From assembly GCA_964447175.1 (NCBI GenBank), contig CAYURP010000004.1, forward strand, positions 58 to 64,057: a DNA stretch of 64,000 nt, given 5' to 3'. The translations under genes and the position numbers were made by a program. Each line of letters opens with the position of its first letter. The first letter of the stretch is position 1. The notes under the pieces were generated by a model. That model saw only the letters and a list, made by a program, of their open reading frames with translations. It was not told the origin of the DNA and did not search any database. Source of the stretch: an uncultured Ignavibacteria bacterium (GTDB lineage: Bacteria; Zixibacteria; MSB-5A5; SM23-73-2). Shown here piece by piece: positions 24,335-51,663 of the stretch.

Positions 24335-24408
24335 TGAATGGGTAGGGCAAGGTCTCCTGACCTTGTCAACTTGGCTCTGGATCGGGAGACCCAGAACTGC
24401 CCATTTGC
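24335..24408. repeat. Family-2 bipartite palindromic repeat element (A half GGGTAGGGCAAGGTCTCCTGACCTTGTC, B half GGATCGGGAGACCCAGAACTGCCCATTTG), copy 1.
   Basis: It is near-identical to the copies at 24492-24579 and 50788-50870. Internal palindromes are AGGTC-TCCT-GACCT and GGGTC/GATC-GGGA-GACCC. Confidence 0.7.
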
Positions 24409-24418
24409 TTGTTCTATG

Positions 24419-24467
24419 TGTGTCAAGTCACACTCATGGCAAGCCATGACCAAGACCTGACACAACA
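24419..24467. repeat. Family-1 palindromic repeat (TGTGTCAAGTCACACTCATGG...CAAGACCTGACACAACA), copy 1.
   Basis: It has a 10-bp inverted repeat GTGTCARGTC/GACCTGACAC around a ~26-nt loop. Two more copies lie at 49888 and 51615. Confidence 0.7.
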
Positions 24468-24491
24468 TGGAATTATTTTCGTTGGAAATGA

Positions 24492-24579
24492 GTGAATGGG
24501 TAGGACAAGGTTTCCTGACCTTGTTCTCTTGGTTCTGGGTCGGGAGACCCAGAACTACCCATTTGTATTATAACAGGTT
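24492..24579. repeat. Family-2 bipartite palindromic repeat element, copy 2. It is in tandem with copy 1 and separated from it by the family-1 hairpin.
   Basis: 'GGGTAGGACAAGGTTTCCTGACCTTGTTC...GGGTCGGGAGACCCAGAACTACCCATTTGTATTATAACAGGTT'. The 3' extension 'TTGTATTAnAACAGGTT' is shared with the 50.8-kb copy. Confidence 0.7.
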
Positions 24580-24738
24580 GTCTGCCCGGTCAGGAGGACA
24601 ACTGTTGAATCCTTATATAAAAGAAGTGCAAAAACTTGTTTTTGCAATGGCAACAATAAATTGTTGCACTCCAATTTGTTCGGGCAGCGACGGAGCTCTA
24701 CCCCTACATTTTTTTGATATTTAATTACTTTTAAAAGA

Positions 24739-25398
24739 CTATCTCACTATGTCCCCGAGCCTGGCCCACCTTACGCTGGTGGGGGTGTGGATGAGATAAT
24801 AGAAAAACATATGGACTACGGGGATTATATAAGGAGATTCAAATCTGGGGGTATCGGGATCCTGTTGCCAGGACCAGTAAATGATAATGGGCTTTCCGAT
24901 AATATGTCTTTTTTCCAGAAATCCCCAGAACCGGGAGTCCCGGGATTCATCCCGGTTATCCCCTAAAACGAATATCTGGCCCTTGGGTACCTGGTAGGGT
25001 CCAAAATTGTCCCTGGTGGAATATTCTTCTGGAAAAACAAGAGGGTCGATGAAATTCTCCCAATTGCGATTTTGAACTTTCTGTCCATCCACATACAAGA
25101 CTTTGTTCACTATCTGTACCGTCCGGCCTTCGTTGGCAATACATCTTTTGATAAAAGTCTTTTCTGGGTTTAATGGATATTTAAAGACTATTATATCACC
25201 TGGTTTAGGATCACCAAAATCATAGGCTAATTTATTGACCAGTACGAAATCTCCGGAAAGCAGAGTTTTCTCCATCGATTTTGAGGGTATCTTGTAGGCA
25301 CTGACCACAAATGCCCTTAAAACGAATGCGATGAGCAGAGCCATAACTATTATCTGGATGTATTCCAGGACGTTTGATTTTATCTTTACACCTATCAT
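24739..25398 (-). CDS. lepB: Signal peptidase I.
   Basis: It has an N-terminal TM helix. The catalytic motifs 'SKSMEKTLLSGDFVLVNK' (Ser box) and 'GDNRDESRDSRFWGF' are present. Confidence 0.9.
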   Translation of the reverse strand: MIGVKIKSNVLEYIQIIVMALLIAFVLRAFVVSAYKIPSKSMEKTLLSGDFVLVNKLAYDFGDPKPGDIIVFKYPLNPEKTFIKRCIANEGRTVQIVNKVLYVDGQKVQNRNWENFIDPLVFPEEYSTRDNFGPYQVPKGQIFVLGDNRDESRDSRFWGFLEKRHIIGKPIIIYWSWQQDPDTPRFESPYIIPVVHMFFYYLIHTPTSVRWARLGDIVR

Positions 25399-25666
25399 TT
25401 TTCCTTTTTATTTTTTTTATCGGAATAAAAGCAAAAAAAATAATTAAAAAGAAGAATATGTAGATATATTCTTGAAGTTAAAATCTTTTTGGTAAATTTG
25501 GTAAATAATGTTTGAATGAGAAGACGCAGAAGATTCAGTTTTGTAAACCAAAATGAGCGCTGGATTAATAAGACATTAGCTCCTTAGTCCTCCTTGAGTT
25601 AATAATAAACAAAAATTTAATAAGAGTTATTTTTAATGTGATTTTTTTAAGTTTTATTCTTTAAAA

Positions 25667-26854
25667 TTACTCTTTTTCCTCTTCCTTTTCCTCATCGGGA
25701 TTTTGTTCTTCTTGATCTTTTTCCTCTGAGGATGTCTCCTCCTCTGTGGCCAATTTTTCCTCTTCCTCCTCCTCTTCTGTTTTTCTCTCCAGAAGGTTCT
25801 CCTCGTCTTTTTTCTGGCGGATGATTATATAGGTCAGGGTTTGGCCCGTGCTTATGGTAGCCAAACCATAGGAGACCACCCCGAAAATTATCAGGATAAA
25901 GGTTATTCCGATTAAGAAGGCTGCTATGCTCTCTGACCAGTTTAAGAATGCTCCGAATCCTAAATCAGGGAGGTGAAACTTGAAATCAATACCCGGGAAG
26001 ATGTTGGTTAAGAAATCGAAAAACCAGGAAGGAAGGGTTAAATAAGCCAGGGCTCCGTCTATGATGTCGGCGAGTTTATCCCCCATAAAAAATCCACAGG
26101 ACCAGTTCAGAAGCTGAAGTGATCTAAAGGTAAAGTATCCCAGGACAAAAGTTCCTAATTTAGCTAAAACTCCAGCTAAAGCGGTGTAAAGGAAAAACCT
26201 CCAGGGCTGGCTCCAGATTGAGGAGAAAAGCTGAACTATGGTTTCAAAGATATCCTCCTTGGTGGCAGCTACTACTGCCGGGGTTAAAAGCAAGGAGAAG
26301 ACAAAAACAAAGAGAGTGTAAATCACAAAAAACGCTACTAAAAAGATGGGAACACCATAAAAGATTCCCACAGCTAACTCACCCACATAGGGGATTTTGC
26401 CAAAAAGACCCACGATTATCCCCCCTATAACCAGGATAGCGGAGAAGACCACCAGAGAAAGGGGGGTTAAAAATACTGTTTTCCCGTGTTTTTTTAAGAA
26501 TTTTAAAGAATCTTTGGCGGAATAGAACTCATCCCCTTTAAGCTGCTCATAGGTCACCTTTCCCACAGCTGCGGAGGCCAAAAGCCAGGTGACTAAAAGA
26601 AAAAGACAGCCAATAATGAATATCAACCAGCTAAGCCAGTTGGTGAAGGTAAAACCCCATACCGGAAAAAGACCATAGCTTTCCCATATATCTGCAAGAC
26701 TCATCTTGCTGACTAAAAAAGCAACGTAGGTCAGGATCAGATACCCCACATATCCTATCATAAGTCCCAGACACTGGATCAGAATCTTTTTGCCGGATAA
26801 GGCTAACCTGGGTGCCCTGAAGATATCCCGGATATCAAAGTACAGCTTATACAT
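25667..26854 (-). CDS. Polytopic membrane protein of unknown function with an acidic (E/K-rich) C-terminal tail.
   Basis: It has about 8 predicted hydrophobic helices. The C-terminus reads 'EEEEEEEKLATEEETSSEEKDQEEQNPDEEKEEEKE'. No recognisable family. Confidence 0.5.
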   Translation of the reverse strand: MYKLYFDIRDIFRAPRLALSGKKILIQCLGLMIGYVGYLILTYVAFLVSKMSLADIWESYGLFPVWGFTFTNWLSWLIFIIGCLFLLVTWLLASAAVGKVTYEQLKGDEFYSAKDSLKFLKKHGKTVFLTPLSLVVFSAILVIGGIIVGLFGKIPYVGELAVGIFYGVPIFLVAFFVIYTLFVFVFSLLLTPAVVAATKEDIFETIVQLFSSIWSQPWRFFLYTALAGVLAKLGTFVLGYFTFRSLQLLNWSCGFFMGDKLADIIDGALAYLTLPSWFFDFLTNIFPGIDFKFHLPDLGFGAFLNWSESIAAFLIGITFILIIFGVVSYGLATISTGQTLTYIIIRQKKDEENLLERKTEEEEEEEKLATEEETSSEEKDQEEQNPDEEKEEEKE

Positions 26855-26937
26855 CTCTCCTCCTTTTTAGAACCATTAAGTTTGAAATTAATAATTTGGG
26901 TTTAACTTTGTCAAGGAAAAAAATTACCAAACTTCGT

Positions 26938-27962
<1,025 letters not shown>

Positions 27963-28078
27963 CTAAATTAGAATATCTAATCTTTTAAGAATATATAAGA
28001 TATAATTGGAATACACTTAAGCATAATTCAGATTCTGGTTTTAATTTAAATTTCAGAAATGATAGTTAAGAAATAATT

Positions 28079-29035
28079 ATGAAAGTTCTGATAACAGGAA
28101 TTGCTGGATTTGTGGGTTCTCATCTGGCGGAATTTTTGATTCAAAAGAAGCAAAAAATTTACGGAACCTGCCTGGCGTGTGAACCTCAAGATAATATTGC
28201 CCATATCAAAGAAAAAATAAAGATAACTGAATGTGACGTAACTGATTTCAATTCCCTTAGAAAACTGATAAACAGGATAAAACCTGATCGAATATATCAT
28301 CTGGCTGCTTTTTCCTCGGTGGGTGAATCTTTTACCAAACCCCTGGATGCAGTTGAGGTCAATGTCAGGGGCACTTTGTATCTGCTGGAGATCTTAAGGA
28401 AAATTAAAAAAAGGATTAGGCTTTTAGTTGTCAGTTCTTCGGATATCTACGGAAAGGTCAAAAAAAAGGATTTGCCAATAAAGGAGACTCATAACCTGAA
28501 TCCAATATCCCCTTATGGAGCAAGTAAAGCCTGTGCCGACCTTTTGGCTTATCAGTATTACCAATCTTACGGGACTTTGGTCATTAGAACCAGATCTTTT
28601 AATCACACCGGACCCAGGCAAAGACTGGGATTCGTTGTGCCCGATTTTGCTTCTCAGATAGCCAGAATCGATAAAGGGATTTCTAAACCGCTAATGAAAG
28701 TCGGTAATCTGAGTGCCAGAAGGGATGTATCCGATGTCCGGGATGTGGTAAGAGCTTACTATCTTCTAATGGAGAAAGGCAGACCGGGTGAGGCTTATAA
28801 TGTATGTTCAGATAAAGCTTACAAAATTGAAACTTTTCTTTCCACCCTTCTACGATTTTCATCAAAGCATATCAAAGTAAGGAAAAAGGGTAAAACCAGA
28901 CCAGCTGAAATACCGATTCTTTTAGGGGATAATTCCAAAATAGAAAAAGAAGTGGGCTGGAAACCACGTATATCTATTCATAAAACACTGAAGGATACTT
29001 TAGATTACTGGAGAGAAAGGTATAGCCGAGGATAA
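28079..29035 (+). CDS. NAD-dependent epimerase/dehydratase, GDP-4-dehydro-6-deoxy-D-mannose reductase (Rmd)-like.
   Basis: 'MKVLITGIAGFVGSHLAEFLI' is a Rossmann fold. 'YGASKACADLLAYQY' gives the YxxxK catalytic pair. It lies immediately after gmd, as in GDP-D-rhamnose loci. Confidence 0.6.
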   Translation: MKVLITGIAGFVGSHLAEFLIQKKQKIYGTCLACEPQDNIAHIKEKIKITECDVTDFNSLRKLINRIKPDRIYHLAAFSSVGESFTKPLDAVEVNVRGTLYLLEILRKIKKRIRLLVVSSSDIYGKVKKKDLPIKETHNLNPISPYGASKACADLLAYQYYQSYGTLVIRTRSFNHTGPRQRLGFVVPDFASQIARIDKGISKPLMKVGNLSARRDVSDVRDVVRAYYLLMEKGRPGEAYNVCSDKAYKIETFLSTLLRFSSKHIKVRKKGKTRPAEIPILLGDNSKIEKEVGWKPRISIHKTLKDTLDYWRERYSRG

Positions 29036-29056
29036 CATTTAGATAGGAGGTTCAAC

Positions 29057-30379
29057 TTGTCTTCGAGAAGTTTAGCATACAAAAACCTGGAAAAAAAGAT
29101 TAAAGACAAAACGGCAGTAGTAGGGGTGGTAGGTCTGGGATATGTAGGACTCCCTTTGGCTGCGGAGATGGGTAATTCGGGATTTCGTGTTTTAGGGCTG
29201 GAGATAAACAAAAGGAAGGTAAAGCTGGTTAACTCAGGAATATCAGACATTGACGATGTGAAAAATGAACAGGTCAAGAAATTAGTGATTAATAAAAAAT
29301 TGAAAGCTTCCACCAATTTTTCACTTCTGAAAAAGGCTGATTGCGTTTGTGTCTGTGTGCCTACCCCACTGAGCAAGACCAAGGATCCGGACGTTTCTTT
29401 TATACTCTCCGCATTCTCCCAGGTGAAAAAATACCTGCATCGGGGTCAGCTGGTGATCCTGGAGAGCACTACCTATCCCGGGACCACAGAGGAACTTATC
29501 CGTCCTATGCTGGAGGAGACAAAACTTAAAGTCGGGAAGGACTTCTTCTTAGCTTTCTCGCCGGAGAGGGTGGACCCAGGAAATGCAACATATGACATAA
29601 AAAATACTCCCCGGGTAGTAGGAGGAACCACTCCCCTTTGTACCAAAATTGCCAAGTTGTTTTATGAGCAGACCATAATTAAAGTAGTTCCGGTATCCTC
29701 AACCCAGTCAGCGGAGATGGTTAAGCTTCTGGAGAATACTTTTCGCAGCGTTAACATCGGTTTAGTTAATGAGGTGGCTTTGATGTGTGATCGTCTGAAA
29801 ATAAATGTATGGGAGATAATCGATGCTGCTGACTCCAAACCATTTGGATTTATGAAGTTTTATCCCGGTCCGGGTTTGGGTGGACATTGCATTCCCATCG
29901 ATCCCCATTATCTTTCCTGGAAATTGAAATCCCTTAACTATTATGCCCGATTCATAGAGTTAGCCGGAGATATAAACTCCCGAATGCCGGAGTATGTAAC
30001 CGAGAGGGTCAGTTTGGCTCTGAATCAAAGTGGAAAGAACCTCAAAGGTTCTGACATCCTGGTGCTGGGAGCAGCCTATAAAGGAAATATCTCCGATGTC
30101 CGGGAGTCGCCGGCTTTGGATGTGATGAGACTTCTGGAGGAAAGGGGTGCTGAAGTAACCTACAGCGATCCTTTTGTTCCCAGGGTGATAATGAACGGTT
30201 ACACCTTAAAATCAAAAAAGTTAACCTCAGGGATCCTGAGAAAAGCGGATTGTGTGGTCATCCTAACCGATCACAGTAACTATGATTATCCCTGGATAGT
30301 GAAAAACTCTAAGCTGATCTTCGATTCCAGAAACGCCACCCGGAGAATCAAAAACAAAAAGAAGATTGTGAAGCTATAA
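29057..30379 (+). CDS. Nucleotide-sugar dehydrogenase (UDP-glucose/GDP-mannose/UDP-ManNAc dehydrogenase family).
   Basis: 'VVGVVGLGYVGLPLAAEMGNSGFRVLGLE' is the N-terminal NAD-binding domain. The catalytic Cys region 'GPGLGGHCIPIDP' is present. Confidence 0.85.
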   Translation: MSSRSLAYKNLEKKIKDKTAVVGVVGLGYVGLPLAAEMGNSGFRVLGLEINKRKVKLVNSGISDIDDVKNEQVKKLVINKKLKASTNFSLLKKADCVCVCVPTPLSKTKDPDVSFILSAFSQVKKYLHRGQLVILESTTYPGTTEELIRPMLEETKLKVGKDFFLAFSPERVDPGNATYDIKNTPRVVGGTTPLCTKIAKLFYEQTIIKVVPVSSTQSAEMVKLLENTFRSVNIGLVNEVALMCDRLKINVWEIIDAADSKPFGFMKFYPGPGLGGHCIPIDPHYLSWKLKSLNYYARFIELAGDINSRMPEYVTERVSLALNQSGKNLKGSDILVLGAAYKGNISDVRESPALDVMRLLEERGAEVTYSDPFVPRVIMNGYTLKSKKLTSGILRKADCVVILTDHSNYDYPWIVKNSKLIFDSRNATRRIKNKKKIVKL

Positions 30380-30431
30380 ACGTGGTTTTATACCTCTGAG
30401 GGTTAATCTTGCCTGCGGAGGTTTTAGTTTA

Positions 30432-31961
30432 TTGAAAAAAAGAACAAATATACTGATAAAGGGAATTCTTTTTGTTTTTTTAGCTGCATGCAATCTCTCT
30501 TATGCTTCCTTATTGGAGAACATCCCTCTAAATAGCTGGGTTTACCCGGCTGTTGATGAGCTCTATATTCAAGGTATTTTCCCCCAACTGCATAAAAACA
30601 TTAAACCTTATGAGAGAGGGGAAATCGCTTCTTTTTTAATTCAGGTTGATGAGAAGATAAAAAATAGGGAACTAAGTCCCACCCCTCCTCAGGTCTGGTT
30701 ATTAGATAAGCTCAAGGAGGAGTTTTCCCTGGAGATGAAGATGTTGAGGGAAAAGAATGGGAAAAACGTTTTGAAATGTGGGCTTGATCCTTATTTTTAC
30801 CTTACTCAGAACAGAATTGATACTTCCTGGACCAGGGGTAAACTGGAACTGGATCTTGCTTTTCAATTTAAAGACAGGCTGCTTTTGAAAGACAAGATAC
30901 TCCTTGATTCCAAAGCGGAAAAGGATCCCAATCTCTATGGCAGGGAATGGAAAAAAGACTTAACCGGTATTTTTGATCAGGGTTATCTGAAACTCGATTT
31001 TAAATATCTTAGTCTTTTATTCGGAAGGGACTATTTGAGATGGGGACCGGGTCAGAACGACTTTTTGCTTGTCTCTGGTTTTGCCCCGCCATTTGATATG
31101 CTGAAACTGGGAGGGGAAATAGGTAAGTTCAAATTCTTATTTTTTGCAACTGTTTTAGATGGGATAACTATATCTGATACCCTGTATAAAAGGTATCTCT
31201 CAGGTCACAGGATCAATTTCAAGCCAGAGCCATATCTGGAGTTAGGAGTATCGGAGGTGGTGCTCTATGGAGGAGCTGATAGATCTTTGGAGCTTTACTA
31301 TCTGAATCCTGTTTTTTTATATTATGGGGAGCAGTTCAACCAGGGGATGGATGATAATCCTTTGTGGAGCTTTGATTTCAGCTTAACCCGGATCAGGAAT
31401 GTTGAACTTTATGGTGAGTTCATGATCGATGATTTTCAATATGATTTCAAAACAGAGCCTCACCAGATCGGATTCAGGCTGGGAGCCAATTGCTCTAATA
31501 TCTTTAAGATTCAGGGGAGTTTTTTAAATCTTGAATATGTCAGAGTCAACAACTGGGTCTACGGACAGGTCAAACCCTGGAACCTTTATACCTATCATAA
31601 TATCGGAATGGGAAGCTCTTTGGGTCCGGATGCGGATATGATTAGCCTTTCCTCTATTTATCATTTGAATTCCGACCTGCAAGTTGATTTCTCCTTTTCC
31701 CACCGAAGAAAAGGGGAAGGGAAAATCCAGGTTCAACCACCTAAAGTTCCTAGACACGAGAAGTTTCCCACAGGTGTGGTCGAGTATACCAAATCCGTTC
31801 AGTTTCTTTTGTTATTCCAGCCCGATGCTAATCTTCAAATTCAGGGCGGAGCAGGTTTCAATAAGGTGGATAACGCTTTTAACTATGAAAACGAAGATGA
31901 AGATAATTTTTATATAAAATTTGGAATAAACTATAATTACTGGGAGGAGTGGTGGTTTTAA
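30432..31961 (+). CDS. Putative outer-membrane beta-barrel protein, possibly Wzi-like (capsule assembly).
   Basis: It has a signal peptide and a TTG start. It is beta-strand-rich with alternating aromatic residues, and its C-terminus '...YNYWEEWWF' ends in aromatics typical of OM barrels. It is adjacent to sugar-nucleotide genes. The family assignment is tentative. Confidence 0.35.
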   Translation: MKKRTNILIKGILFVFLAACNLSYASLLENIPLNSWVYPAVDELYIQGIFPQLHKNIKPYERGEIASFLIQVDEKIKNRELSPTPPQVWLLDKLKEEFSLEMKMLREKNGKNVLKCGLDPYFYLTQNRIDTSWTRGKLELDLAFQFKDRLLLKDKILLDSKAEKDPNLYGREWKKDLTGIFDQGYLKLDFKYLSLLFGRDYLRWGPGQNDFLLVSGFAPPFDMLKLGGEIGKFKFLFFATVLDGITISDTLYKRYLSGHRINFKPEPYLELGVSEVVLYGGADRSLELYYLNPVFLYYGEQFNQGMDDNPLWSFDFSLTRIRNVELYGEFMIDDFQYDFKTEPHQIGFRLGANCSNIFKIQGSFLNLEYVRVNNWVYGQVKPWNLYTYHNIGMGSSLGPDADMISLSSIYHLNSDLQVDFSFSHRRKGEGKIQVQPPKVPRHEKFPTGVVEYTKSVQFLLLFQPDANLQIQGGAGFNKVDNAFNYENEDEDNFYIKFGINYNYWEEWWF

Positions 31962-31962
31962 T

Positions 31963-32802
31963 TTGATCCGGCTTAAATCATTTGCTAAAATAAATCTATG
32001 TCTCTATGTTTTAAGAAAAAGGAGGGATGGGTATCACCAGATCTACACGGTAATGCAGGCTGTGGATCTTTATGACAGGTTAAGTTTATACAAGATACCA
32101 AAAGGTATAATTATTCAGACCAACAACCCCCAGCTCCCCACAGACAGGAGAAATTTAGTTTATAAAGCTTCTGAGATTTTTTTTAATCAGACCGGAATTG
32201 ATCAGGGGGTGAGAATAAAAATTCAAAAAAGAATTCCACTATCCTCAGGTTTGGGCGGTGGCAGCAGCAATGCAGCTTTTACACTGATGGGATTGAATAA
32301 ACTTTTCAATACTAACTTATCCCAAAGGAAACTTGTGGAAATGGCAAAGCACATAGGTTCAGACGTTCCTTTCTTTTTATCCTCCGGGCAGGCCCTGGCT
32401 ACCGGAAGGGGAGAGAAAATCAGGGAGATTAGGCTGCCCCGGGACTACTGGATCGTTTTGATAAATCCGGGTATAAAAATTTCCACCTCCCGGGCTTATG
32501 AAAATTTTAAAATTCACTTGACAAGAAAGAGGAAATTAATTAAAATTTATAAAAGTAAAAAGAGCTTCCTTGATTATATAGCCGGATGGAAAAACGAACT
32601 GGAAAAGACTTCGGAAAAAAAGTATCCTCAGCTAAAAAAGCTCAGAGAAAAACTGACTCAAATTGGGGCAATTAAAACATCTATGTCAGGAAGTGGACCT
32701 ACAGTATATGGAATTTTTTTGGACAAACCCAGATACAAGGAGGTGAAGAGTCTGCGAAGTAAAGAGTGTCAAATTTGGGTGACACGACCAATCCCTTTAT
32801 AG
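31963..32802 (+). CDS. ispE: 4-diphosphocytidyl-2-C-methyl-D-erythritol kinase.
   Basis: 'KINLCLYVLRKRRDGYHQI...IPLSSGLGGGSSNAA' is the GHMP kinase motif. Confidence 0.9.
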   Translation: MIRLKSFAKINLCLYVLRKRRDGYHQIYTVMQAVDLYDRLSLYKIPKGIIIQTNNPQLPTDRRNLVYKASEIFFNQTGIDQGVRIKIQKRIPLSSGLGGGSSNAAFTLMGLNKLFNTNLSQRKLVEMAKHIGSDVPFFLSSGQALATGRGEKIREIRLPRDYWIVLINPGIKISTSRAYENFKIHLTRKRKLIKIYKSKKSFLDYIAGWKNELEKTSEKKYPQLKKLREKLTQIGAIKTSMSGSGPTVYGIFLDKPRYKEVKSLRSKECQIWVTRPIPL

Positions 32803-32865
32803 GTCCTTTAGTGTCATCAGGTAAATGTTACATAGCAAGCTATTCATGCAGAGGAGGAAAATAAA

Positions 32866-33135: not shown

Positions 33136-33139
33136 ATAT

Positions 33140-33213: not shown

Positions 33214-33264
33214 AAATTTTTTAACGTGTTTCAGTTTTCTTAAAACCAGAAGGAGGAAGTGGGT

Positions 33265-42042: not shown

Positions 42043-42072
42043 AGCGGAGTCCTTAAGGACTCCGCTTTTTTG
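42043..42072 (+). terminator. Rho-independent terminator after hslU.
   Basis: It has a perfect 10-bp stem AGCGGAGTCC/GGACTCCGCT with loop ttaa, followed by TTTTTTG. Confidence 0.75.
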
Positions 42073-42134
42073 TTTGACTTAAGGAGAAAAAAATTTAAAT
42101 TGCAGAAAAGATGAAAAGCTATAAAGCAATATTC

Positions 42135-42301
42135 GGGTCGGGAGACCCGAAACTACCCGCATCCTTTGCACCGGATAAAGGCAGGTCATCAGAATCTCCA
42201 TCGAGTAGCGGTAAGTTTTCTGAACGGTCAACTCAACCGGGTAGAAGTAGGTCTTTTGAAACGCCATCTCCTCCGGGTAGGGGCAGGTCTCCTGACCTGC
42301 C
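42135..42301. repeat. Family-2 repeat, rearranged copy. A B-half (GGGTCGGGAGACCCGAAACTACCCG) and an A-half (GGGTAGGGGCAGGTCTCCTGACCTGCC) lie in swapped order ~115 bp apart, with degraded A-like fragments between them.
   Basis: Compared directly with the copies at 24.3 and 50.8 kb. The inner fragment 'CCGGGTAGAAGTAGGTCTTTTGAAACGCC' resembles a decayed A-half. Confidence 0.55.
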
Positions 42302-42322
42302 TAAAAAAAGAAAGGAGCAAAA

Positions 42323-43228: not shown

Positions 43229-43249
43229 TAAACTCTTTGGGAGAGGAAA

Positions 43250-43684: not shown

Positions 43685-43907
43685 TCCAAATTTATCTCTT
43701 TATAATCTAACCCTGCAATAAATGTGAATCCTGTTGCAGGGATAATGCCCGCTAATCCTTACATCACTTTTTCCCGTCTCAATACCCTTTTCCTTAATCT
43801 CCTTAAACGCAATTAATTACATCACACACCATCTTTATCCATCGGTTCCTTTATCATCCGGGACACTGGCATATCAATTGCTTTTTATCGGGGTGGAGGG
43901 AAAAGCC

Positions 43908-44393
43908 ATGAAATGCTACTTTACAGCAAAACCTGAGTCAACTGATGAGCCGGGAAAAAAGAGAGTATTGACCTCCTTTGCCATACCCGATCTGGGTGTT
44001 TTATTCAGGACCCATTATTCAGGTGAAGTGGATGAATGCAATTATATAAGCCTTTTGAAGCTTTTGAAATTCGTCGAGTCAAATCCCAAGGTCTTCGATA
44101 ATCATAAAATTCAGGTTTACTCCCACGAGCCCCAGATTGTCTATCAGGTGAACGGGAAAATCCCCTGTGGCGAGAGGCTGCAAAAGTTAAATGGCTTAGC
44201 CCTTTTGTATAAGGCAAAACTCAAGTACTCGCTGGACTGGGTACATTTAAAGGATAACAAAGCTGAGAAGGGGATTATAGACCAGCCCCAGACGAAAATC
44301 CTACTCCCCCTCAACTTTGATGAATTGGACGATTCGCTTAAAAAAAGAATGAAACCCAGATCCAATACAAAGCGCTCCCCTTTGTCCATGTAA
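43908..44393 (+). CDS. Hypothetical protein.
   Basis: The ORF has a good RBS (ggaggg-7nt-ATG at 43908). No family recognised. Confidence 0.4.
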   Translation: MKCYFTAKPESTDEPGKKRVLTSFAIPDLGVLFRTHYSGEVDECNYISLLKLLKFVESNPKVFDNHKIQVYSHEPQIVYQVNGKIPCGERLQKLNGLALLYKAKLKYSLDWVHLKDNKAEKGIIDQPQTKILLPLNFDELDDSLKKRMKPRSNTKRSPLSM

Positions 44394-44425
44394 CGTAACT
44401 TTCAGTATTTCATTAAATTATCTCC

Positions 44426-44460
44426 TTGACAAATTTCGATTTTTAGTTAAATTATTTTAA
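44426..44460 (+). promoter_or_regulatory. Conserved upstream motif TTGACAAATT-N16-TTATTTTAA (copy 3 of 3).
   Basis: The box is 'cTTGACAAATTtcgatttttagttaaaTTATTttaa', ~70 bp upstream of the 44530 ATG. The same box and spacing occur at 4579 and 8346. Confidence 0.35.
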
Positions 44461-44529
44461 AGGACATAATAACCTTGAATCTTATTCTCTATTTGGCATA
44501 GAGGATAGAATTTTGAGCGGGGTGAGAAA

Positions 44530-46515
44530 ATGTTCAGAAAAATAGCGATTTTGGCTGCATTCCTTGCTTTTGTCGCATTTGATCTGAATGCTCGTTCTCT
44601 GATTTCAGAAGAGCCAATTAAAATGAACGGAATCCCTGAGGCTCAGCAGAGGGTGCATAGAGTGGGGAACGTTTATTTCTGCAACACCAACTGGGGTTTT
44701 TTAGGAAGCCAGATGAGAGACATATATGAGTCCATAGGTGGGTGCTTCAATCCCAACCCTGAGAAGGAAGTTCAGGCTCCTTCGTTTGAGACTCCACCGA
44801 ATTCTGGATTAGAATACCTTTTCCAGGGTGCGCTCTGGATCGGAGCTATAGTTACAACCAATACAGAAATTGAGACACTGGTAACTGTGGGTGCGGATGG
44901 CTGGTGGTGGATCTATGAGATGGCACCAGGTGAGGGGTCGGAGTATGGGATAATCGAGAAGTCCACAATCCATCCAACTTCCTGTTATTCTCCGGAGGCT
45001 CTTTCTGCACAGGATATAATAGGAATTTTCTCGGATACTGCTGATGCTCCACTTTCTCCCTGGGATCCGAGTACAGACTGGGATGGCAGACCGCATCATC
45101 CCTTAGGAGTAGAAATCACTCAAATTGGTTACTCCTGGTCATTGCCGGAGTATGGCGATTTCATAATTCTATGCTATATAGTTAAGAACATCGGAACCTA
45201 TAATTTGTCTGAAATGTACCTGGGTTTCTATATGGATACAGATATCTGTCATATCAGCGAGAATCCCTATAATCCAGATGAAGGAGCTCAAGATGACATA
45301 ACCGGCTTTTTGAAGAATTACGTTACACCATCTGGAGAAACAACTGAGGTGAATATTGCCTGGGCTGCTGATAATGATGGCCAGCCATACTCAGGAGTAT
45401 TTACTGAACTCAGTCCTACAGGTGTGATAGGGCTGAAACTGCTGGGTTGTAGCAACCCTAATGTCGGAATTTCATATAATTGGTGGATTTCAAATTATCA
45501 AGGTTATCCATGGGACTGGGGTCCCTGGCTTAAGGTAAATCAACAAAAATGGGAGGAAATCAACCCATACGGATCGGGAAACCGTTTTCCAGATAATGCC
45601 ATGGGCACACCAGGAGGTGATCGGTCCAAATATTTTATCTTGTCCAACGGAGAGATGGATTTTGATCAGATATTCACAGATACCTTGCCCAAGCTGGATA
45701 CTTCCTGGGTTCCAGCTCAAAGTTCAGTATCCCAGGATTTGGTTGATGGATATGATATTAGATTTCTTTATTCATTGGGCCCTTTTAATCTTCCTCCAGG
45801 TGATAGTATTTTCGCAGCAATAGCATTGATGGCTGGTGGAAGTTTTCATAGTGATCCTGAAAACGAGGATGTTAACCTGCCTTTGTATCCTTATACCTAC
45901 TACTCAAATCTTGATTTCTCGAACTTAATTGAAAATGCACAGATAGCCCAGCAGATTTATGATACTTTACTTGACTTCCACCCACCTGCGTCAATCAAAA
46001 ATCTTAGAGCGAGCTTAATTGAAAATGGCTCAGTTACTCTTACCTGGACCACCCCTGGTGATGACTGGGATTTCGGTATAGCTTCTTTTTATGATTTAAG
46101 ATATTCAGATTTACCTGTGGAAGAAGATACCATTTCCTGGTGGGAGCAAGCATATATAGCTACAAATTTGCCTGTCCCTTCTGAGCCAGGATCTATAGAT
46201 AGCTGCCAGGTTTCAGGCCTTTCATCAGACAGTGTTTATTATTTCATTATCAGAGCCTGTGACGATGTGGGTTATTGCTCAGATTTTTCTAATATCGCCT
46301 ATTCAGGGCTATCTGGTGATATTGACCTGAACGGTCAGGTTGATATAGACGACATCTTAATTGTAGTTCAATATACATTAAAATCTGGTTATCTTGTGCT
46401 TCCACTGGCTGCTGCGGATGTGAATGGTGACTGCTTGGTCAACATTGTTGACGTGGTTTATCTGGTTAACTATGTGTTCAAAGGAAGAGCTGCTCCTCAA
46501 ATTGGATGTGCTTAG
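44530..46515 (+). CDS. Secreted protein with an FN3-like domain and a C-terminal tandem dockerin module.
   Basis: The signal peptide is MFRKIAILAAFLAFVAFDLNARS. The FN3-like stretch is 'IKNLRASLIENGSVTLTWTTPGDDW...YYFIIRACDD'. The C-terminus reads 'GDIDLNGQVDIDDILIVVQYTL...ADVNGDCLVNIVDVVYLVNYVFKG'. Confidence 0.7.
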   Translation: MFRKIAILAAFLAFVAFDLNARSLISEEPIKMNGIPEAQQRVHRVGNVYFCNTNWGFLGSQMRDIYESIGGCFNPNPEKEVQAPSFETPPNSGLEYLFQGALWIGAIVTTNTEIETLVTVGADGWWWIYEMAPGEGSEYGIIEKSTIHPTSCYSPEALSAQDIIGIFSDTADAPLSPWDPSTDWDGRPHHPLGVEITQIGYSWSLPEYGDFIILCYIVKNIGTYNLSEMYLGFYMDTDICHISENPYNPDEGAQDDITGFLKNYVTPSGETTEVNIAWAADNDGQPYSGVFTELSPTGVIGLKLLGCSNPNVGISYNWWISNYQGYPWDWGPWLKVNQQKWEEINPYGSGNRFPDNAMGTPGGDRSKYFILSNGEMDFDQIFTDTLPKLDTSWVPAQSSVSQDLVDGYDIRFLYSLGPFNLPPGDSIFAAIALMAGGSFHSDPENEDVNLPLYPYTYYSNLDFSNLIENAQIAQQIYDTLLDFHPPASIKNLRASLIENGSVTLTWTTPGDDWDFGIASFYDLRYSDLPVEEDTISWWEQAYIATNLPVPSEPGSIDSCQVSGLSSDSVYYFIIRACDDVGYCSDFSNIAYSGLSGDIDLNGQVDIDDILIVVQYTLKSGYLVLPLAAADVNGDCLVNIVDVVYLVNYVFKGRAAPQIGCA

Positions 46516-46548
46516 AGTTCTCCTAAAAATCTCTTGATATTTTCCTAG

Positions 46549-46578
46549 GCTGGAGTTAAATTACTCCAGCTTTTTTAT
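46549..46578 (+). terminator. Rho-independent terminator.
   Basis: The stem is GCTGGAGT/ACTCCAGC (8 bp, perfect) with loop taaatt, followed by TTTTTTAT. Confidence 0.65.
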
Positions 46579-46616
46579 TTCTGGATAGTCAATGTCAATG
46601 TTGGCTTACGTGACTT

Positions 46617-46799
46617 TTGCCAATGATTAAGTTGAATAAAATTCTATGCGGCAGGTGCGGGGGGTGTGTGGCGGTATGCGAGCCCGATGCCCTGGAATTA
46701 AACTCGAATGAATTGATAATAAAAGAAGAACTTTGCACCCAGTGCAATAACTGTGTTATTTTTTGTCCATCCAGTGCTTTAGAAAACGAAGATGAATGA
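46617..46799 (+). CDS. 4Fe-4S ferredoxin.
   Basis: It has two Cys clusters, 'CGRCGGCVAVCEP' and 'CTQCNNCVIFCP'. Its end overlaps the downstream reductase. Confidence 0.8.
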   Translation: MPMIKLNKILCGRCGGCVAVCEPDALELNSNELIIKEELCTQCNNCVIFCPSSALENEDE

Positions 46800-47973
46800 G
46801 AAATTCGACTGTATAGTCATAGGTGCTGGTCCAGCCGGGTCAATGGCAGCTAAGACTATGGCTGAAAAAGGACTTGACGTCCTGCTTCTGGAAAAGGATA
46901 AGGTTATCGGACAGCCCCTATCCTGCGCTGAGGGTATAAGTGTTCTGGGTTTGAATCAGTTCTTTGAGCCTGATCCCCGCTGGATATGTGCTAAAATCCA
47001 CAAACTCCTTCTGGTCAGCCCATCAGGTAACAAAGCGGAAACAGATCACCCGGATGCTGCTTATGTGCTGGATCGAAAGCTTTTTGATAAAGAGCTGGCA
47101 GAGCAGGCAGGTTCTTCCGGGGCTGAGGTTAAGGTGGACTCCTGTGCTGTGGGCTTGACCAGAAACCAGAATAGGATTTCTGGAGTGAGAGTAACAGAAA
47201 ATGGACGGGAAAAAGAATATTATGCGAAAGTAATAATCGGGGCTGATGGTATTGAATCTAAAGTGGGCCGGTGGGCTGGTATCGATACATCGCTGGAACT
47301 GGGAAGATTGGATTCGGCATTTCAGTATCTTCTGGTTTCAGATGAAATTGATCCTGAGTGTATGGAGTTCTACGTGGGAGAAAAGATCGCACCTGGAGGT
47401 TATGCCTGGATCTTCCCTAAAGGGCGAAATTGTGCCAATGTGGGCCTGGGCATCTCTCCTGCTTTGGCTCCTGATCTTAAACCAAAAGAGCTTCTGGATG
47501 AGTTCGTTAAGAAAAGATTCAATCGATTCTCGGTGGATGAAACAATGATGGGCGGGACACCCACTTTTTCCCGGGATAACGTTATAGTCAAGAAAAACGT
47601 GCTTCTGGTGGGCGATGCTGGCAGGATTGTTGATTCCCTGTCCGGAGCAGGCATTGCCAATGCCTTATTGTCCGGCAAAATAGCAGGCCAAGTGGTGAGC
47701 CAATACGTAAAAGAGAATCCGGGGTCAGTTGAATTCTTGAAAAAATACGAAAAAGAACTAATGAAAAGGAGGGGACGGGAGCTTCGGTTTTACTCTTTCT
47801 GCAGGAAGGTTTTTTTGAAGATGAACGACGAGGACTTTGACCTCGTGGTTAAATTTTTGGATGACTATCTGGGCGGGAAAAAGGTAAAAGGGCTGGACCC
47901 TTTTGCCATAGTCAAGGCGATATTTAAGTCTAATCCCAAGCTTTTGAGGCTTTTAAAACATGTGGTCTGGTAA
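46792..47973 (+). CDS. Geranylgeranyl reductase family FAD-dependent oxidoreductase.
   Basis: 'FDCIVIGAGPAGSMAAKTMAEKGLDVLLLEK' is the FAD-binding GxGxxG motif. The length and the 'GDAAG' motif match GGR/ChlP-like enzymes. Confidence 0.8.
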   Translation: MNEKFDCIVIGAGPAGSMAAKTMAEKGLDVLLLEKDKVIGQPLSCAEGISVLGLNQFFEPDPRWICAKIHKLLLVSPSGNKAETDHPDAAYVLDRKLFDKELAEQAGSSGAEVKVDSCAVGLTRNQNRISGVRVTENGREKEYYAKVIIGADGIESKVGRWAGIDTSLELGRLDSAFQYLLVSDEIDPECMEFYVGEKIAPGGYAWIFPKGRNCANVGLGISPALAPDLKPKELLDEFVKKRFNRFSVDETMMGGTPTFSRDNVIVKKNVLLVGDAGRIVDSLSGAGIANALLSGKIAGQVVSQYVKENPGSVEFLKKYEKELMKRRGRELRFYSFCRKVFLKMNDEDFDLVVKFLDDYLGGKKVKGLDPFAIVKAIFKSNPKLLRLLKHVVW

Positions 47974-47979
47974 AAAAGA

Positions 47980-48258
47980 TCAATCCTTTTTTTCCTCAGA
48001 GGATGAGGCTAATTTGTTAACCAGCTTTGACAGGCGGGCTTTGGTTCGGGCAGCTGTTTTTTTATGGATTATCTTTTGCCTGACTGCTTTATCCAAAGCG
48101 GAAACAGCCTCTTTTAAATTTTCCTGAGCTTGCTTTAAATCAGATGAGTCTTCCACTTTTTTTATCAGGCTTTTTATCTTGGCTTTTATGGAACGATTAC
48201 GCAGATTGGCTTTATGGCTCTGTCTTAACCTTTTAACAACTGATATATGTTCTACCAA
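47980..48258 (-). CDS. rpsT: 30S ribosomal protein S20.
   Basis: 'HISVVKRLRQSHKANLRNRSIKAKIKSLIKK...KIIHKKTAARTKARLSKLV' matches RpsT. Confidence 0.9.
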   Translation of the reverse strand: MVEHISVVKRLRQSHKANLRNRSIKAKIKSLIKKVEDSSDLKQAQENLKEAVSALDKAVRQKIIHKKTAARTKARLSKLVNKLASSSEEKKD

Positions 48259-48316
48259 AATTCCTCCTTTTTTGAAAAAACAATTTAACTAAAATTTGTG
48301 ATTTGTCAACCCAAAA

Positions 48317-49879
48317 ATGAACCAGGACGATAAATTATTTAAATCTACCGGCATCGTCAGCTCAGCTACCTTTCTCTCAAGGGTTCTGGGTCTGGTAAGG
48401 GAGCAGATGTTTGCCTATCTTTTCGGAGCGGGATATTCAATGGATGCCTTTGTGGCTGCCTTCAGAATTCCCCATCTTCTGCGGGATCTTTTTGCCGAGG
48501 GAGCCTTAGCCACCGCCTTTGTTCCGGTCTTCACGGATCATCTAACTAATAAAGGGAAAAAAGAGGCTTTTTATCTGGGGAATCTGGTGATAAATACCCT
48601 TCTGGTAGTCCTGAGCCTGGTGATCCTTTTGGGGATACTTTTTGCCCCTTTTCTGGTGAATTTGATCGCTCCCGGTTTTGGTGAAATTCCCGGAAAACTC
48701 GAGCTGACCACCCAGCTCACCCGCATACTTTTTCCGTTTTTAGCCTTGGTTTCCTTAGCAGCAGTGGTTATGGGAATGCTTAACTCCTTCGGACATTTTG
48801 CCACCCCGGCCCTGGCTCCCACTATGTTTAATATAGGTATAATCTTTTCCGGATTTGTGCTTAGCCCGCTTTTTGATCCTCCTATTCTGGGAATAGCTTT
48901 GGGAGCGCTTTTGGGTGGTCTGGGACAGCTGGGTATTCAGATTCCCAGACTCAGAAAAGAAGGATTCCGATATAAACCGGTTCTAAATTTTCGAGACCCG
49001 GGATTGAAAAGGATTCTTCTTCTGATGACCCCGGCTGTTTTCGGTATAGCTTCAACTCAGATAAATGTCTTTGTGGCAACCAACCTGGCTTCGCTTCTTC
49101 CTCAGGGAAGCGTCTCCTACCTCAGTTACGCCTTCCGCTTGATGTATTTCCCTCTGGGAGTGTTCGGGGTGGCTGTAGCTACTGTGACCTTACCTTTAGT
49201 TTCCATTCATGCTGCCCAGAATAAAACCGACCAGGTGCTTTCCACCTATAGCACCTCTTTAAAGCTGGTCTTTTTTCTGGTGATTCCCTGCACTATTTTT
49301 TTAATTGTGGCAGCTGGTCCCATAATATCTTTGCTTTTTCAGCATGGAAAATTTCAATACTTAGACACAGTTGCCACCTCCAGGGCTTTGATTTTGTATT
49401 CGCTGGGCCTCATTGGTTTTGCTGTTATCCGGATAACTGCACCGGTGTTCTATGCTTTGAAGGACACCAAGACTCCGGTGATAATATCCGCCATATCCGT
49501 AGCCCTAAACATCATTCTGAACATCATTTTGATGCGATCTATGGGTTATCTGGGATTAGCTTTAGCCACCTCCATAGCTGGCTGGGTGAATATGCTTTTA
49601 CTTCTTCTGATGCTTAACCAAAAGATCGGACCCTTTGATTTTAAGGACCTGTTCAAAGCCTCTTATGAGATAATCCTGGCATCTTTTATAATGGGAGGAT
49701 TGGTCTGGTTGTTCTTTTCCTTTTACCATTTGGATTTAAGCGTTGCTCCATTATCGCAGAAGATTTTATCAGTTTTGATTTCAATGGGCTTGGGTCTTTT
49801 GGCCTATGTTTCAATTTGTCGTTTTTTTAATGTGGCTGAATTAAAAAGGATTTTGGATATATTCAGAAAAGTTCGTTAA
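48317..49879 (+). CDS. murJ: Lipid II flippase MurJ/MviN.
   Basis: 'SATFLSRVLGLVREQMFAYLFGAGYSMDAFVAAFRIPHLLRDLFAEGALATAFVPVF' matches MurJ. It has 14 predicted TM segments. Confidence 0.9.
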   Translation: MNQDDKLFKSTGIVSSATFLSRVLGLVREQMFAYLFGAGYSMDAFVAAFRIPHLLRDLFAEGALATAFVPVFTDHLTNKGKKEAFYLGNLVINTLLVVLSLVILLGILFAPFLVNLIAPGFGEIPGKLELTTQLTRILFPFLALVSLAAVVMGMLNSFGHFATPALAPTMFNIGIIFSGFVLSPLFDPPILGIALGALLGGLGQLGIQIPRLRKEGFRYKPVLNFRDPGLKRILLLMTPAVFGIASTQINVFVATNLASLLPQGSVSYLSYAFRLMYFPLGVFGVAVATVTLPLVSIHAAQNKTDQVLSTYSTSLKLVFFLVIPCTIFLIVAAGPIISLLFQHGKFQYLDTVATSRALILYSLGLIGFAVIRITAPVFYALKDTKTPVIISAISVALNIILNIILMRSMGYLGLALATSIAGWVNMLLLLLMLNQKIGPFDFKDLFKASYEIILASFIMGGLVWLFFSFYHLDLSVAPLSQKILSVLISMGLGLLAYVSICRFFNVAELKRILDIFRKVR

Positions 49880-49887
49880 TTGCATAG

Positions 49888-49934
49888 GTGTCAGGTCACA
49901 CTCATAAAAAACATTAGCAAGACCTGACACAACA
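49888..49934. repeat. Family-1 palindromic repeat, copy 2 (GTGTCAGGTCACACTCATAAAAAACATTAGCAAGACCTGACACAACA).
   Basis: The 10-bp inverted arms are GTGTCAGGTC/GACCTGACAC. It is in direct orientation relative to the copy at 51615. Confidence 0.7.
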
Positions 49935-50005
49935 AGAAGAAAATTTTTATTATATTTATTAATAAGTAATCCAATTGGATTGCTGTTCATAGGTTAAGTG
50001 ATTAA

Positions 50006-50608
50006 ATGGCAAAGTTTCGCCATGCAGTTTTAAATGAGATGAGTCTCGGTGGTCGTGTCAGAGTTTTTGCAGAACCCTTAGTCATTGAGGAAATATTGAA
50101 GCACGTCAAGCAAAGTGGGGCTAAGAGCAAAAAGCAATTTCAGAATGTCTTTTTTTATCATAGGTTGCCTTCACCGATTGATCTTCTTTGCCTCGAGATA
50201 TTAGGTGAAGCAATTATGTTAGGCAAATTAGATGTTCTTAGTGAATTCATTTTGATCCCTCCTAAAATTGATCCCTCCTTGAAGCATATAGGCGGAAGAA
50301 GAGGAAGAACAACCGAATCCCCAGAACACCAAGGGATGAAAATATGGGTAAGAGATTTCCTACATTCTAAAGAAATTTCAGCTGTGTGGGAGATATCATA
50401 CTTGGGTTATCATGTGGACGTAGGATGCCTCAAAAAACTGATTTTTGTTGAATGTGGTGACACGGAACCTCGTAAGATATTTGAATTCCTTCGTCAAAAT
50501 CTGAGCATCGGTATACTTCAGTATGATTCTGAAGAAATCTTATGGTTTAAACCTAAAGCCTCTTTTACGGAATTCGCGAATTCCAAGGCTGATGGGCTGA
50601 TTGTTTAG
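50006..50608 (+). CDS. Hypothetical protein (200 aa) inside the repeat-bracketed segment.
   Basis: It is an intact ORF with no recognisable family. Confidence 0.4.
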   Translation: MAKFRHAVLNEMSLGGRVRVFAEPLVIEEILKHVKQSGAKSKKQFQNVFFYHRLPSPIDLLCLEILGEAIMLGKLDVLSEFILIPPKIDPSLKHIGGRRGRTTESPEHQGMKIWVRDFLHSKEISAVWEISYLGYHVDVGCLKKLIFVECGDTEPRKIFEFLRQNLSIGILQYDSEEILWFKPKASFTEFANSKADGLIV

Positions 50609-50787
50609 GTGTGCAACTGAAAACAGAAGTTTTTTTGTTCTATCGGGTCTTGCCCGGCGGGTGTGATCTGCCTGCTTCGCTGCGTAAATTGTAGTTTGCC
50701 GATTCATCGGCTATAATAAGCCCCATAAATGTGGCAACTACAATACAAAACACGCCCAATGAATTGGGCAACTACAAGAGAATTTCA

Positions 50788-50870
50788 TCGGGTAGGACAA
50801 GGTCTCCTGACCTTGTCTACAGAGTTCTGGGTCAGGAGACCCAGAACTACCCAATTGTATTAACACAGGT
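50788..50870. repeat. Family-2 bipartite palindromic repeat element, copy 3.
   Basis: 'TCGGGTAGGACAAGGTCTCCTGACCTTGTCTACAGAGTTCTGGGTCAGGAGACCCAGAACTACCCAATTGTATTAACACAGGTT'. Confidence 0.7.
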
Positions 50871-51089
50871 TATTTGTTGGTGGCGGAATTGTCGTCAAGA
50901 CCCGTTTCGGGGATTTCCGCCACCTTATTTTATAGGTTGGGCAAATCCAATTGCCCAACCAACAGGAGAAAAACACAGGTTGGGACAACATGTGATACCG
51001 ATTTTCATTTTTCTATCCACCAATAACCAATCGCCCATCTACCAACAGGGTGGAGCCAAGCTCCACCCCTTCGCGTTATTTTGAATGTT

Positions 51090-51545
51090 TTATGCTGCCT
51101 TTAGCTCTGATGTACAGTTAGGGCAACGGGTTGCCTTTATTGATATCTTTGAGAAACAGTAGGGACAATCTTTGGTGGTGGGTTCAGGGGGCGGAGCTTC
51201 CTCTTTGCGCTTGAGCTTGTTGATACCGCGAATGAGAAGGAATACCGCAAAAGCAACTATTAAAAAACTGATAATGGTGTTTATGAAGACCCCGTAGTTC
51301 AATGAAACCGCACCGGCTGCCTGAGCATCATTAAGGGAAGCATAGGGTCCGGGAGTAGTACCACTTTTCAGAATCACAAAAAGGTTGGAAAAATCCACGT
51401 TACCCAATAGCAGGCCGATGGGTGGCATAATGACATCGGTAACCAGTGATTTGACGATTGTTCCGAAAGCAGCACCGATGATGATCCCTACTGCCATGTC
51501 CACTACGTTGCCCCGCATGGCAAACTCTTTGAAATCCTTCAGCAT
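51090..51545 (-). CDS. mscL: Large-conductance mechanosensitive channel.
   Basis: '[44 protein letters not shown]' matches MscL. Confidence 0.9.
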
Positions 51546-51614
51546 AAGGACACCTCCTATGAGTTTGGCTTGGTTGTTTTTGTTATTGGCTTCATTTCGC
51601 CTATTTGTTACATA

Positions 51615-51663
51615 TGTGTCAGGTCACACTCATAATAAACCATGAGCAAGACCTGACACAACA
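51615..51663. repeat. Family-1 palindromic repeat, copy 3 (TGTGTCAGGTCACACTCATAATAAACCATGAGCAAGACCTGACACAACA).
   Basis: It matches the copies at 24419 and 49888. Confidence 0.7.

Follow-up and report, generated by a model that had tools for sequence, protein, structure and literature searches.

Palindromic repeats of an uncultivated Zixibacteria chromosome are probable REP elements, one family of which flanks RAYT genes in related contigs

The tyrosine transposases associated with repetitive extragenic palindromes (REPs), termed RAYTs (REP-associated tyrosine transposases), are usually encoded by single-copy genes, and the systems formed by RAYTs and inverted REP doublets (REPINs) are mostly vertically inherited and lineage-specific. 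GTAG tags, REPtrons, and an organisation into head-to-head, tail-to-tail and heterodimer arrangements were described for REPs (PMC3733652). For the group-3 TnpA(REP) proteins, binding and cleavage depend on the loop, the upper stem and the GTAG tag; changes in the lower stem are tolerated (PMC8266576). The present analysis concerned a 64,000-nucleotide stretch of contig CAYURP010000004.1 from an uncultured bacterium of the phylum Zixibacteria, referred to as the window. [quoted passage not shown] In our interpretation, both families are REPs, i.e., non-autonomous hairpin DNA elements of the Zixibacteria chromosome, with a probability of about 0.8. The lead to a Y1 transposase was borne out for F1, and the same identity is very likely for F2, judging by its anatomy.

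The three copies of each family were found where they had been reported, both by reading the sequence and by a repeat finder, whose families D7, D9, D10, D13 and D14 cover them. The core 14–16-mers of the repeats occurred 3–5 times in the window, with 0.15–0.5 occurrences expected, and the core-motif counts were reached in none of 100 dinucleotide-preserving shuffles. The window also contained 11 perfect hairpins with a GT[AG]G tag (0–4 in shuffles). F1 and F2 are new sequence families of an element kind that is well known, so the earlier claim of novelty held at the level of sequence and not at the level of kind. Rfam gave no match at the F1 and F2 sites, either at gathering level or with E-values up to 1–10; the only gathering-level match in the window was tRNA-Gln, and the best sub-threshold matches over the repeats were at chance level. 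A full-text literature search with 12-mers of the repeats returned unrelated primer sequences only.

The F2 unit, previously presented as bipartite, turned out to be an inverted dimer of GTAG-tagged REPs. It consists of two inverted copies of one 36-nt module, the second hairpin being the first module read on the opposite strand. Every GGTC-TCCY-GACC hairpin was extracted from all fetched DNA, and the resulting 37 monomers aligned without gaps as NNNN-GGGTAG-N5-GGTC-TCCY-GACC-N5 (36-nt module GGGTAG-N5-GGTC-TCCY-GACC-N5). The tag lay outside the search pattern, and GTAG stood 5 nt before GGTC, in the same register, in 27 of the 37 monomers; three more carried GTAA and one ATAG. In the window, the tag was GTAG in seven of the eight monomers and GCAG in one. 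A monomer is a 26-nt GTAG-tagged perfect palindrome with a 9-bp stem and a 4-nt loop. The hairpins, for which 5 bp had been given, have in fact 8–9 bp, and an outer pairing of GGGTAG with CTACCC closes them. Free covariation was seen at the five outer stem pairs; 97% of the stem cells were paired (21–49% when the partner was slid), with 75 double-change cells against 27.8 in shuffles, and a few G.U-type pairs were present in the stems on the + strand.

A search of the window with the covariance model of the F2 monomer (R2) detected exactly eight monomers, four per strand, arranged head-to-head with the tags outside in three dimers and tail-to-tail in one. The tail-to-tail dimer is the copy at 42135–42301, which had been taken for rearranged and decayed and instead comprises two intact monomers (40.6 and 44.2 bits) around a 108-nt spacer. 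Partners with unlike stems (GACAAGGTC and TTCTGGGTC) form heterodimers. The whole unit folded into two hairpins that the outer GGGTAG/CTACCC stem closes (z-scores −5 to −5.9), and the fold z-scores of the repeats overall were between −4 and −6. Single monomers were found in related loci (L036, L063, L085 and L090; L numbers denote related loci and contigs), and F2 monomers shared contigs with F1 in L029, L036, L049, L063, L085 and L090. In viral contigs, seven matches to an F2 half-pattern were due to chance, being located inside genes and lacking hairpin extension.

The TCCT and RGGA loops of the two halves are complementary, as had been noted, because both halves are one module in inverted order; the complementarity follows from this inversion, and the reading of it as an RNA loop–loop contact is unsupported. 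Two further ideas on the AGGA/TCCT loops, a CsrA-type decoy with a GGA loop and a Shine–Dalgarno/anti-Shine–Dalgarno mimic, were considered and dropped on the same grounds, namely that the loop pair is one module on both strands and that a TTTA/TAAA variant exists. The 3′ tail ending in TTGTATTAnAACAGGTT, formerly included in F2, accompanied copies 2 and 3 only and is part of another, small hairpin (AACAGGTTGTC...GACAACTGTT), the AACA(C)AGGTT after the F2 dimers being its 5′ arm. This hairpin was seen at 24565–24610 of the window, at about 2095–2130 of L006 and at 730–770 of L049; other Zixibacteria also have it behind F2, and in L004, a contig from Elusimicrobiota, it follows a sister element.

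The F1 pattern used for metagenomes, in which nothing was fixed but the inner portion of the lower stem and some of the junction, matched 64 contigs, and no F1 match was found in viral contigs. The 61 distinct units aligned as NN-GTCAGGTC-ACA-CTC[variable hairpin]GAG-CAA-GACCTGAC-N'N'-AAC. A unit of about 48 nt is composed of a 10-bp lower stem ending in GGTC/GACC, an ACA/CAA internal loop, a variable apical hairpin, which can be missing (L100), and, unpaired, the tag AAC, which reads GTT on the opposite strand. The pairs left free by the pattern showed 108 double-change cells versus 29.8 in shuffles, a count equalled by none of 500 shuffles, and 93% of cells were paired compared with 25–35% when the partner was slid. 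All of GC, CG, AU and UA were seen at the two outermost pairs, and the inner helix had double changes in four of its seven pairs. The covariance model of F1 (R1) scored 61–71 bits on the + strand of the three window copies versus 18–26 bits on the − strand, and F1 is therefore directional. A looser scan revealed 117 units in 64 loci. AAC, outside the scan requirements, followed 111 of these units; pairs of units within 120 nt were oriented −+ in 16 cases, +− in nine and in tandem in only three. Just eight of the 117 units lay inside open reading frames (ORFs) of at least 120 aa, though such ORFs made up 80% of the bases.

The check for an associated IS200/IS605-type Y1 transposase was answered by related contigs, in which F1 flanks RAYT genes of the Y1 superfamily. 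At three F1 loci, an ORF ending in ...EYIHNNPVKSGLV..EDW.WSS was located directly upstream of the F1 unit. The F1-adjacent ORFs of L032 and L073 matched Pfam Y1_Tnp and scored 94.3 and 97.1 bits with the NCBIfam equivalog NF047646 (REP_Tyr_transpos, cut-off 80), but remained at 19–25 bits, below the cut-off of 55, with the IS200 model NF033573. This RAYT, called type 1, carries a histidine–hydrophobic residue–histidine (HUH) motif (SHVHLLI) and a tyrosine motif (YIHNNP), and its only match among solved structures was 4ER8, the E. coli TnpA(REP) bound to REP, a weak match (E = 1.4e-8, 38 bits, about 125 residues). With tblastn and a small hidden Markov model, type 1 genes were identified in L032, L045, L067/L072, L073 and L078, the last being a pseudogene interrupted by a stop codon, and none was found in the 64-kb window.

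In seven related loci (L032, L045, L072/L067, L073, L078, L100 and, with a variant layout, L099), the 160-aa type 1 gene stood between two F1 units, an inverted one 5′ of it and a direct one 3′ of it, which in these relatives is a classic REPtron. The inverted F1-type unit lay within about 15 nt of the start codon and the direct unit followed the stop codon. Two of the seven, L100 and L099, come from long contigs of metagenome-assembled genomes (MAGs), L099 having a variant stem. The type 1 homologues P0137 and P0194 had F1-type units as flanks. The type 1 homologues were 52–100% identical and came from Zixibacteria wherever the source named the phylum; some were annotated by JGI as 'REP element-mobilizing transposase RayT'. 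Most RAYT clusters occurred on 1–4 contigs. A regular-expression screen for the HUH and tyrosine motifs in 20 genome loci gave no match, and the RAYT is absent from these loci.

A third family, F3, was recognised in the window at 24283–24310 as GTAG-CCCCACCTTG-CCCC-CAAGGTGGGG; by pattern this hairpin is also terminator-like and resembles a terminator of ybjQ. L057 holds a truncated RAYT of a second kind, with 29% identity to type 1, from which a family of about 178 aa, type 2, was traced; it also passed the NF047646 model. Relatives of F3 with the form GT[AG]G-CCCACC...GGTGGG flank the type 2 genes in L092, L094, L095 and L096, so that a RAYT between F3-type REPs occurs in relatives as well. 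Taken over the RAYT genes next to F1 and F3, the scores were 91.7–108.2 bits with NF047646 and 19–36 bits with NF033573; these genes have the HUH and tyrosine motifs, pass the RAYT model and fail the IS200 model. An unusual array was noticed in L094 (3779–5537), in which two type 2 copies stand in tandem, each between the same GTGG-CCCACCC hairpins.

Compared with the GTAG-REPs (Di Nocera et al. 2013, PMC3733652; Corneloup et al. 2021, PMC8266576), F2 is alike in its tag, its 9-bp palindrome and its 4-nt loop. It shares with them a short conserved spacer in the head-to-head and a long variable spacer in the tail-to-tail arrangement as well as heterodimer stems (PMC3733652). As in the group-3 REPs of Pseudomonas and Stenotrophomonas, its loop and upper stem are constant and its lower stem covaries, and this combination of an invariant tip and a variable lower stem fits the recognition by group-3 TnpA(REP) (PMC8266576). 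However, the GGTC-TCCY-GACC tip was not found in the text or the searched supplements of PMC3733652, and its host belongs to Zixibacteria, the tip being present also in Elusimicrobiota, Schekmanbacteria and Planctomycetota. F1 resembles the REPs and BIMEs (bacterial interspersed mosaic elements) of the E. coli group-2 REPtron (4ER8) in being a long imperfect palindrome with a conserved internal loop that stands on both sides of a RAYT gene, once as REP and once inverted, but it differs by a GTT/AAC tag in place of GTAG and by an apical hairpin that varies freely and is lacking in L100.

The F2 dimers are an arrangement of the REPIN/BIME type. As in the REPIN-RAYT systems (Bertels & Rainey 2011, PMC3116915), inverted REP doublets are the apparent repeat unit, the RAYT is apparently single-copy and the repeats form a multi-copy extragenic population. 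On the other hand, the unlike half-stems of F2 make the doublet a Y of two hairpins and not one long hairpin (PMC3116915), and identity of the tip across phyla is unexpected for vertically inherited REPINs. With IS200/IS605 elements and the ORF-less palindrome-associated transposable elements (PATEs), there is a likeness in Y1/HUH chemistry on hairpins of single-stranded DNA and in the lack of target duplication; here, in contrast to IS200/IS605, the RAYT model was passed and the IS200 model failed, the flanks are inverted dispersed units and no tnpB is present.

The repeat features of the window were as follows.

24283–24310, + strand: F3 unit, a GTAG-tagged perfect hairpin that opens the REP cluster downstream of ybjQ.
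24336–24406, both strands: F2 head-to-head dimer 1 (R2 47.3 and 30.7 bits; fold z-score −5.0).
24336–24371 (+) and 24371–24406 (−): monomers a and b of F2 dimer 1; b has the tag GCAG and one A.C mismatch.
24416–24469, + strand: F1 unit 1 (R1 65.9 bits), its lower stem altered by one G>A.
24494–24564, both strands: F2 head-to-head dimer 2, monomers 24494–24529 (+) and 24529–24564 (−) (R2 43.4 and 46.8 bits; z-score −5.3).
24573–24610, + strand: small hairpin AACAGGTTGTC...GACAACTGTT, read from the sequence, containing the "tail" motif of the preliminary description.
42127–42162, − strand: F2 monomer b, left half of the tail-to-tail dimer in the hslU/argF spacer (R2 40.6 bits).
42271–42306, + strand: F2 monomer a, right half of the same dimer (R2 44.2 bits), with the start codon of argF 17 nt downstream.
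49884–49936, + strand: F1 unit 2 (R1 61.1 bits), whose hairpin begins 9 nt past the murJ ORF.
50634–50678, − strand: degenerate inverted F1 unit (R1 13.3 bits, E = 0.16), with a matching decayed unit in L049 at 487–540.
50715–50782, + strand: two tandem 34-nt units (repeat family D20), each a short hairpin and AACTAC, the inverted GTAG tag.
50786–50856, both strands: F2 head-to-head dimer 3, monomers 50786–50821 (+) and 50821–50856 (−) (R2 49.6 and 49.1 bits), orthologous to L049 664–734.
51612–51665, + strand: F1 unit 3 (R1 70.9 bits) in the divergent mscL/comEC region.

The density in the window was 3–4 F1 units and eight F2 monomers per 64 kb. Comparison with the ORFs bore out the statement that all F1 and F2 copies of the window are intergenic; the sole ORF overlapping repeat copies, at 50731–51084 with a GTG start, is probably spurious. 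The genes around the repeats are ordinary chromosomal ones according to Pfam (kdsB-like, ybjQ, lepB, hslU, argF, murJ, mscL and comEC). The convergent spacer at 24236–24738 (503 nt), downstream of ybjQ, is a REP cluster composed, in order, of F3, an F2 dimer, F1, another F2 dimer and the small extra hairpin. The units occupied spacers of convergent, tandem and divergent gene pairs, with inconsistent orientation and without a common downstream gene, and five of the seven repeat sites were located after the 3′ end of a gene. No enrichment of promoter-like sites was detected at the units. The GC skew of the window tracked gene direction and was uninformative on the replication strand.

The HslU protein of the window was 91% identical to that of the Candidatus Zixiibacteriota MAG JBARPA01, a fragmented assembly in which five exact F2 dimers were found, out of 20 exact F2 hits across a collection of species representatives. 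The other exact matches fell in Schekmanbacteria, Elusimicrobiota, Brocadiaceae and several other Planctomycetota, among others, with lower and outer stems that differed yet still paired. Since the search pattern fixed the tip, only its occurrence in many phyla carries information, and its invariance carries none. In L004, a sister element had the loops TTTA and TAAA, which are again complementary. L016, an unclassified MAG, contained hybrids at 3990–4420 and 7340–7430, some with the F1 tag and stem (GTT-NN-GTCAGGTC) and the F2 loop TCCT, and others with the F1 stem and different loops. Because these hybrids join F1 stems and tags with the F2 loop, F1 and F2 are relatives, in agreement with the kinship suggested earlier by their common AGGTC/GACCT core. 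Hybrids of the L016 type would tie both families into one superfamily. Tentative, and on balance unlikely, is the idea that identity of the F2 tip across phyla reflects either a REPIN-RAYT lineage moving between phyla or a shared host factor keeping the tip; such a factor could be a protein, conserved and binding DNA or RNA, or a loop–loop contact of RNA.

L049 was syntenic with the window at 50.6–54.7 kb, with an identity of 80% in the REP region and 69% in comEC. Mini-hairpins, F2 dimer and a decayed F1 unit are all retained there, without mscL between the repeats, and therefore REP units can persist at orthologous sites across considerable divergence. The two mini-hairpins with AACTAC (50715–50782) stand directly before the third F2 dimer and are kept at 590–660 of L049. 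In the window, mscL (51090–51545, − strand) lies between the F2 dimer and F1 (50856–51612), and in L049 (734–877) the repeats are about 145 nt apart; a gene, mscL, was thus gained or lost between REP units. Synteny of the window with the closest MAG ended at the hslU terminator. Four independent contigs with the same HslU (L102–L105) stopped 40–460 nt past the gene, where the spacer of the window holds the tail-to-tail F2 dimer, and the repeats may break assemblies downstream of hslU.

Anatomy, covariation, the extragenic multi-copy distribution and the F1 REPtron of relatives were observed directly. Of the features known from REPs, both families showed maintained pairing of the palindrome and frequent inverted with rare tandem pairing, extragenic placement was found for F1 (8/117 in ORFs) and for all window copies, and a conserved unpaired tag of the GTAG type was found in F2 and not in F1. 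Such stable folds (z-scores −4 to −6), covarying stems with a few G.U-type pairs on the + strand, and loops conserved across phyla, complementary even in the TTTA/TAAA variant of L004, would also be displayed by small structured RNAs, and F2, perhaps also F1, might be an sRNA or a cis-regulator, with F2 as a Y-shaped three-way junction with kissing UCCU/RGGA loops. We consider this very unlikely, since loop complementarity is automatic on inversion of a module, the F2 halves occur alone and tail-to-tail as well and each has GTAG at a fixed register, the gene contexts are mixed, with inconsistent orientation and no shared downstream gene, promoter-like sites are not enriched at the units, and F1 stands inverted on both sides of a transposase gene. 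The RNA loop–loop and MITE-like parts of the preliminary description found no support, in view of missing target-site duplications, of monomers standing alone, head-to-head or tail-to-tail, of the lack of an Rfam family and of inconsistent placement relative to genes; its REP-like part stood. No direct duplication bordered the intact F1 units or the head-to-head F2 dimers (three of each), the similarity of the flanks of F2 copies 1 and 2 being part of a larger local duplication (D7). The left and right ends of IS200/IS605 elements differ from each other, whereas the gene-flanking units here are the same as the dispersed ones, in inverted orientation. With transposases that pass the RAYT equivalog and reach only 19–36 bits on the IS200 model (cut-off 55), with most RAYT clusters on 1–4 contigs and with no tnpB gene nearby, mobilisation of MITEs or IS200/IS605-type ends (PATEs) by a classical multi-copy transposase instead of a domesticated RAYT appears very improbable. 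In its favour, the repeats are short palindromes present in multiple intergenic copies, the protein associated with them is of the Y1/HUH superfamily and L094 has its two type 2 copies in tandem.

Host regulatory sites of independent origin, arising without transposition as terminators, mRNA-stabilising hairpins or GGTC-N4-GACC dimer operators, would explain why five of seven sites follow a gene 3′ end, why F3 and one F2 hairpin fit a lax terminator pattern (24150–24800) and why the REP region is better conserved than comEC between the window and L049 (80% versus 69%). However, F1 and F2 lack the T-run of intrinsic terminators, the one F2 hairpin fitting the lax pattern only, one F1 unit is located in a divergent promoter region, and near-identical units of 50–85 nt at unrelated loci, together with the flanking of RAYT genes, indicate copying and not independent origin; this explanation is also very improbable. 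A regulatory role is possible as a secondary function only, compatible with REP identity, and the hairpins may additionally serve as 3′-end stabilisers or as terminators between convergent genes.

Several observations weigh against the assignment of F1 and F2 to REPs. The window contains no RAYT, and it is related contigs, and not the genome under study, that supply the link of F1 to RAYT; DNA identity to the closest syntenic relatives is about 70–80%. Among about 100 loci, no RAYT was flanked by F2 monomers, and the REP assignment of F2 is therefore based on anatomy; the type 2 homologues sampled for a RAYT of F2 (P0005, P0058, P0090 and P0091) all had F3-type and not F2 flanks. F1 has a GTT/AAC tag and no GTAG, the exact F2 tip in several phyla is unusual for REPIN-RAYT systems, and the constancy of the F1 and F2 cores across loci arises by construction, as the search patterns fixed them. 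Finally, covariation shows that pairing was selected and does not distinguish single-stranded DNA from RNA.

By analogy with the established biochemistry of TnpA(REP), a single-copy RAYT of the HUH/Y1 type, encoded elsewhere in the genome, would bind the folded single-stranded REP, read its tag, loop and upper stem, and cut and rejoin the DNA beside the hairpin. In this way copies would spread and be homogenised without target duplications, and lower stems would be free to vary provided that pairing is kept. Activity in this genome and the identity of the RAYT of F2 are what we infer.

Apart from the repeats discussed above, a 31-nt motif, (C/G)TTGACAAATT..., was shared by 4578–4608, 8345–8375 and 44425–44455 of the window, upstream of three genes, those at 4922 and 44530 with dockerin-like repeats and that at 8544 with Por_Secre_tail; the motif may be a common promoter. 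Dockerin-like repeat pairs were present in several secreted proteins (4184–4360, 7973–8121 and 46414–46490), and positions 1–4400 were occupied by a very large ORF of tandem coding repeats of about 280 nt.

To our knowledge, work on REP/RAYT systems has been confined almost entirely to Proteobacteria, and no mention of REPs was found in the literature consulted on Zixibacteria. This uncultivated phylum harbours two RAYT types alongside no fewer than three REP families. For annotators of MAGs, this is a caution that REP units mimic structured RNAs and terminators, and they may contribute to contig breaks. If a REPIN-RAYT lineage moved between phyla, or if a host factor keeps the F2 tip, this would contradict the strictly vertical, lineage-specific view of REPIN-RAYT systems. 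F1 departs from the GTAG rule by its GTT tag, conserved internal loop and dispensable apical hairpin, and its covariation data show which positions matter, providing ready substrates for testing how RAYTs read hairpins.

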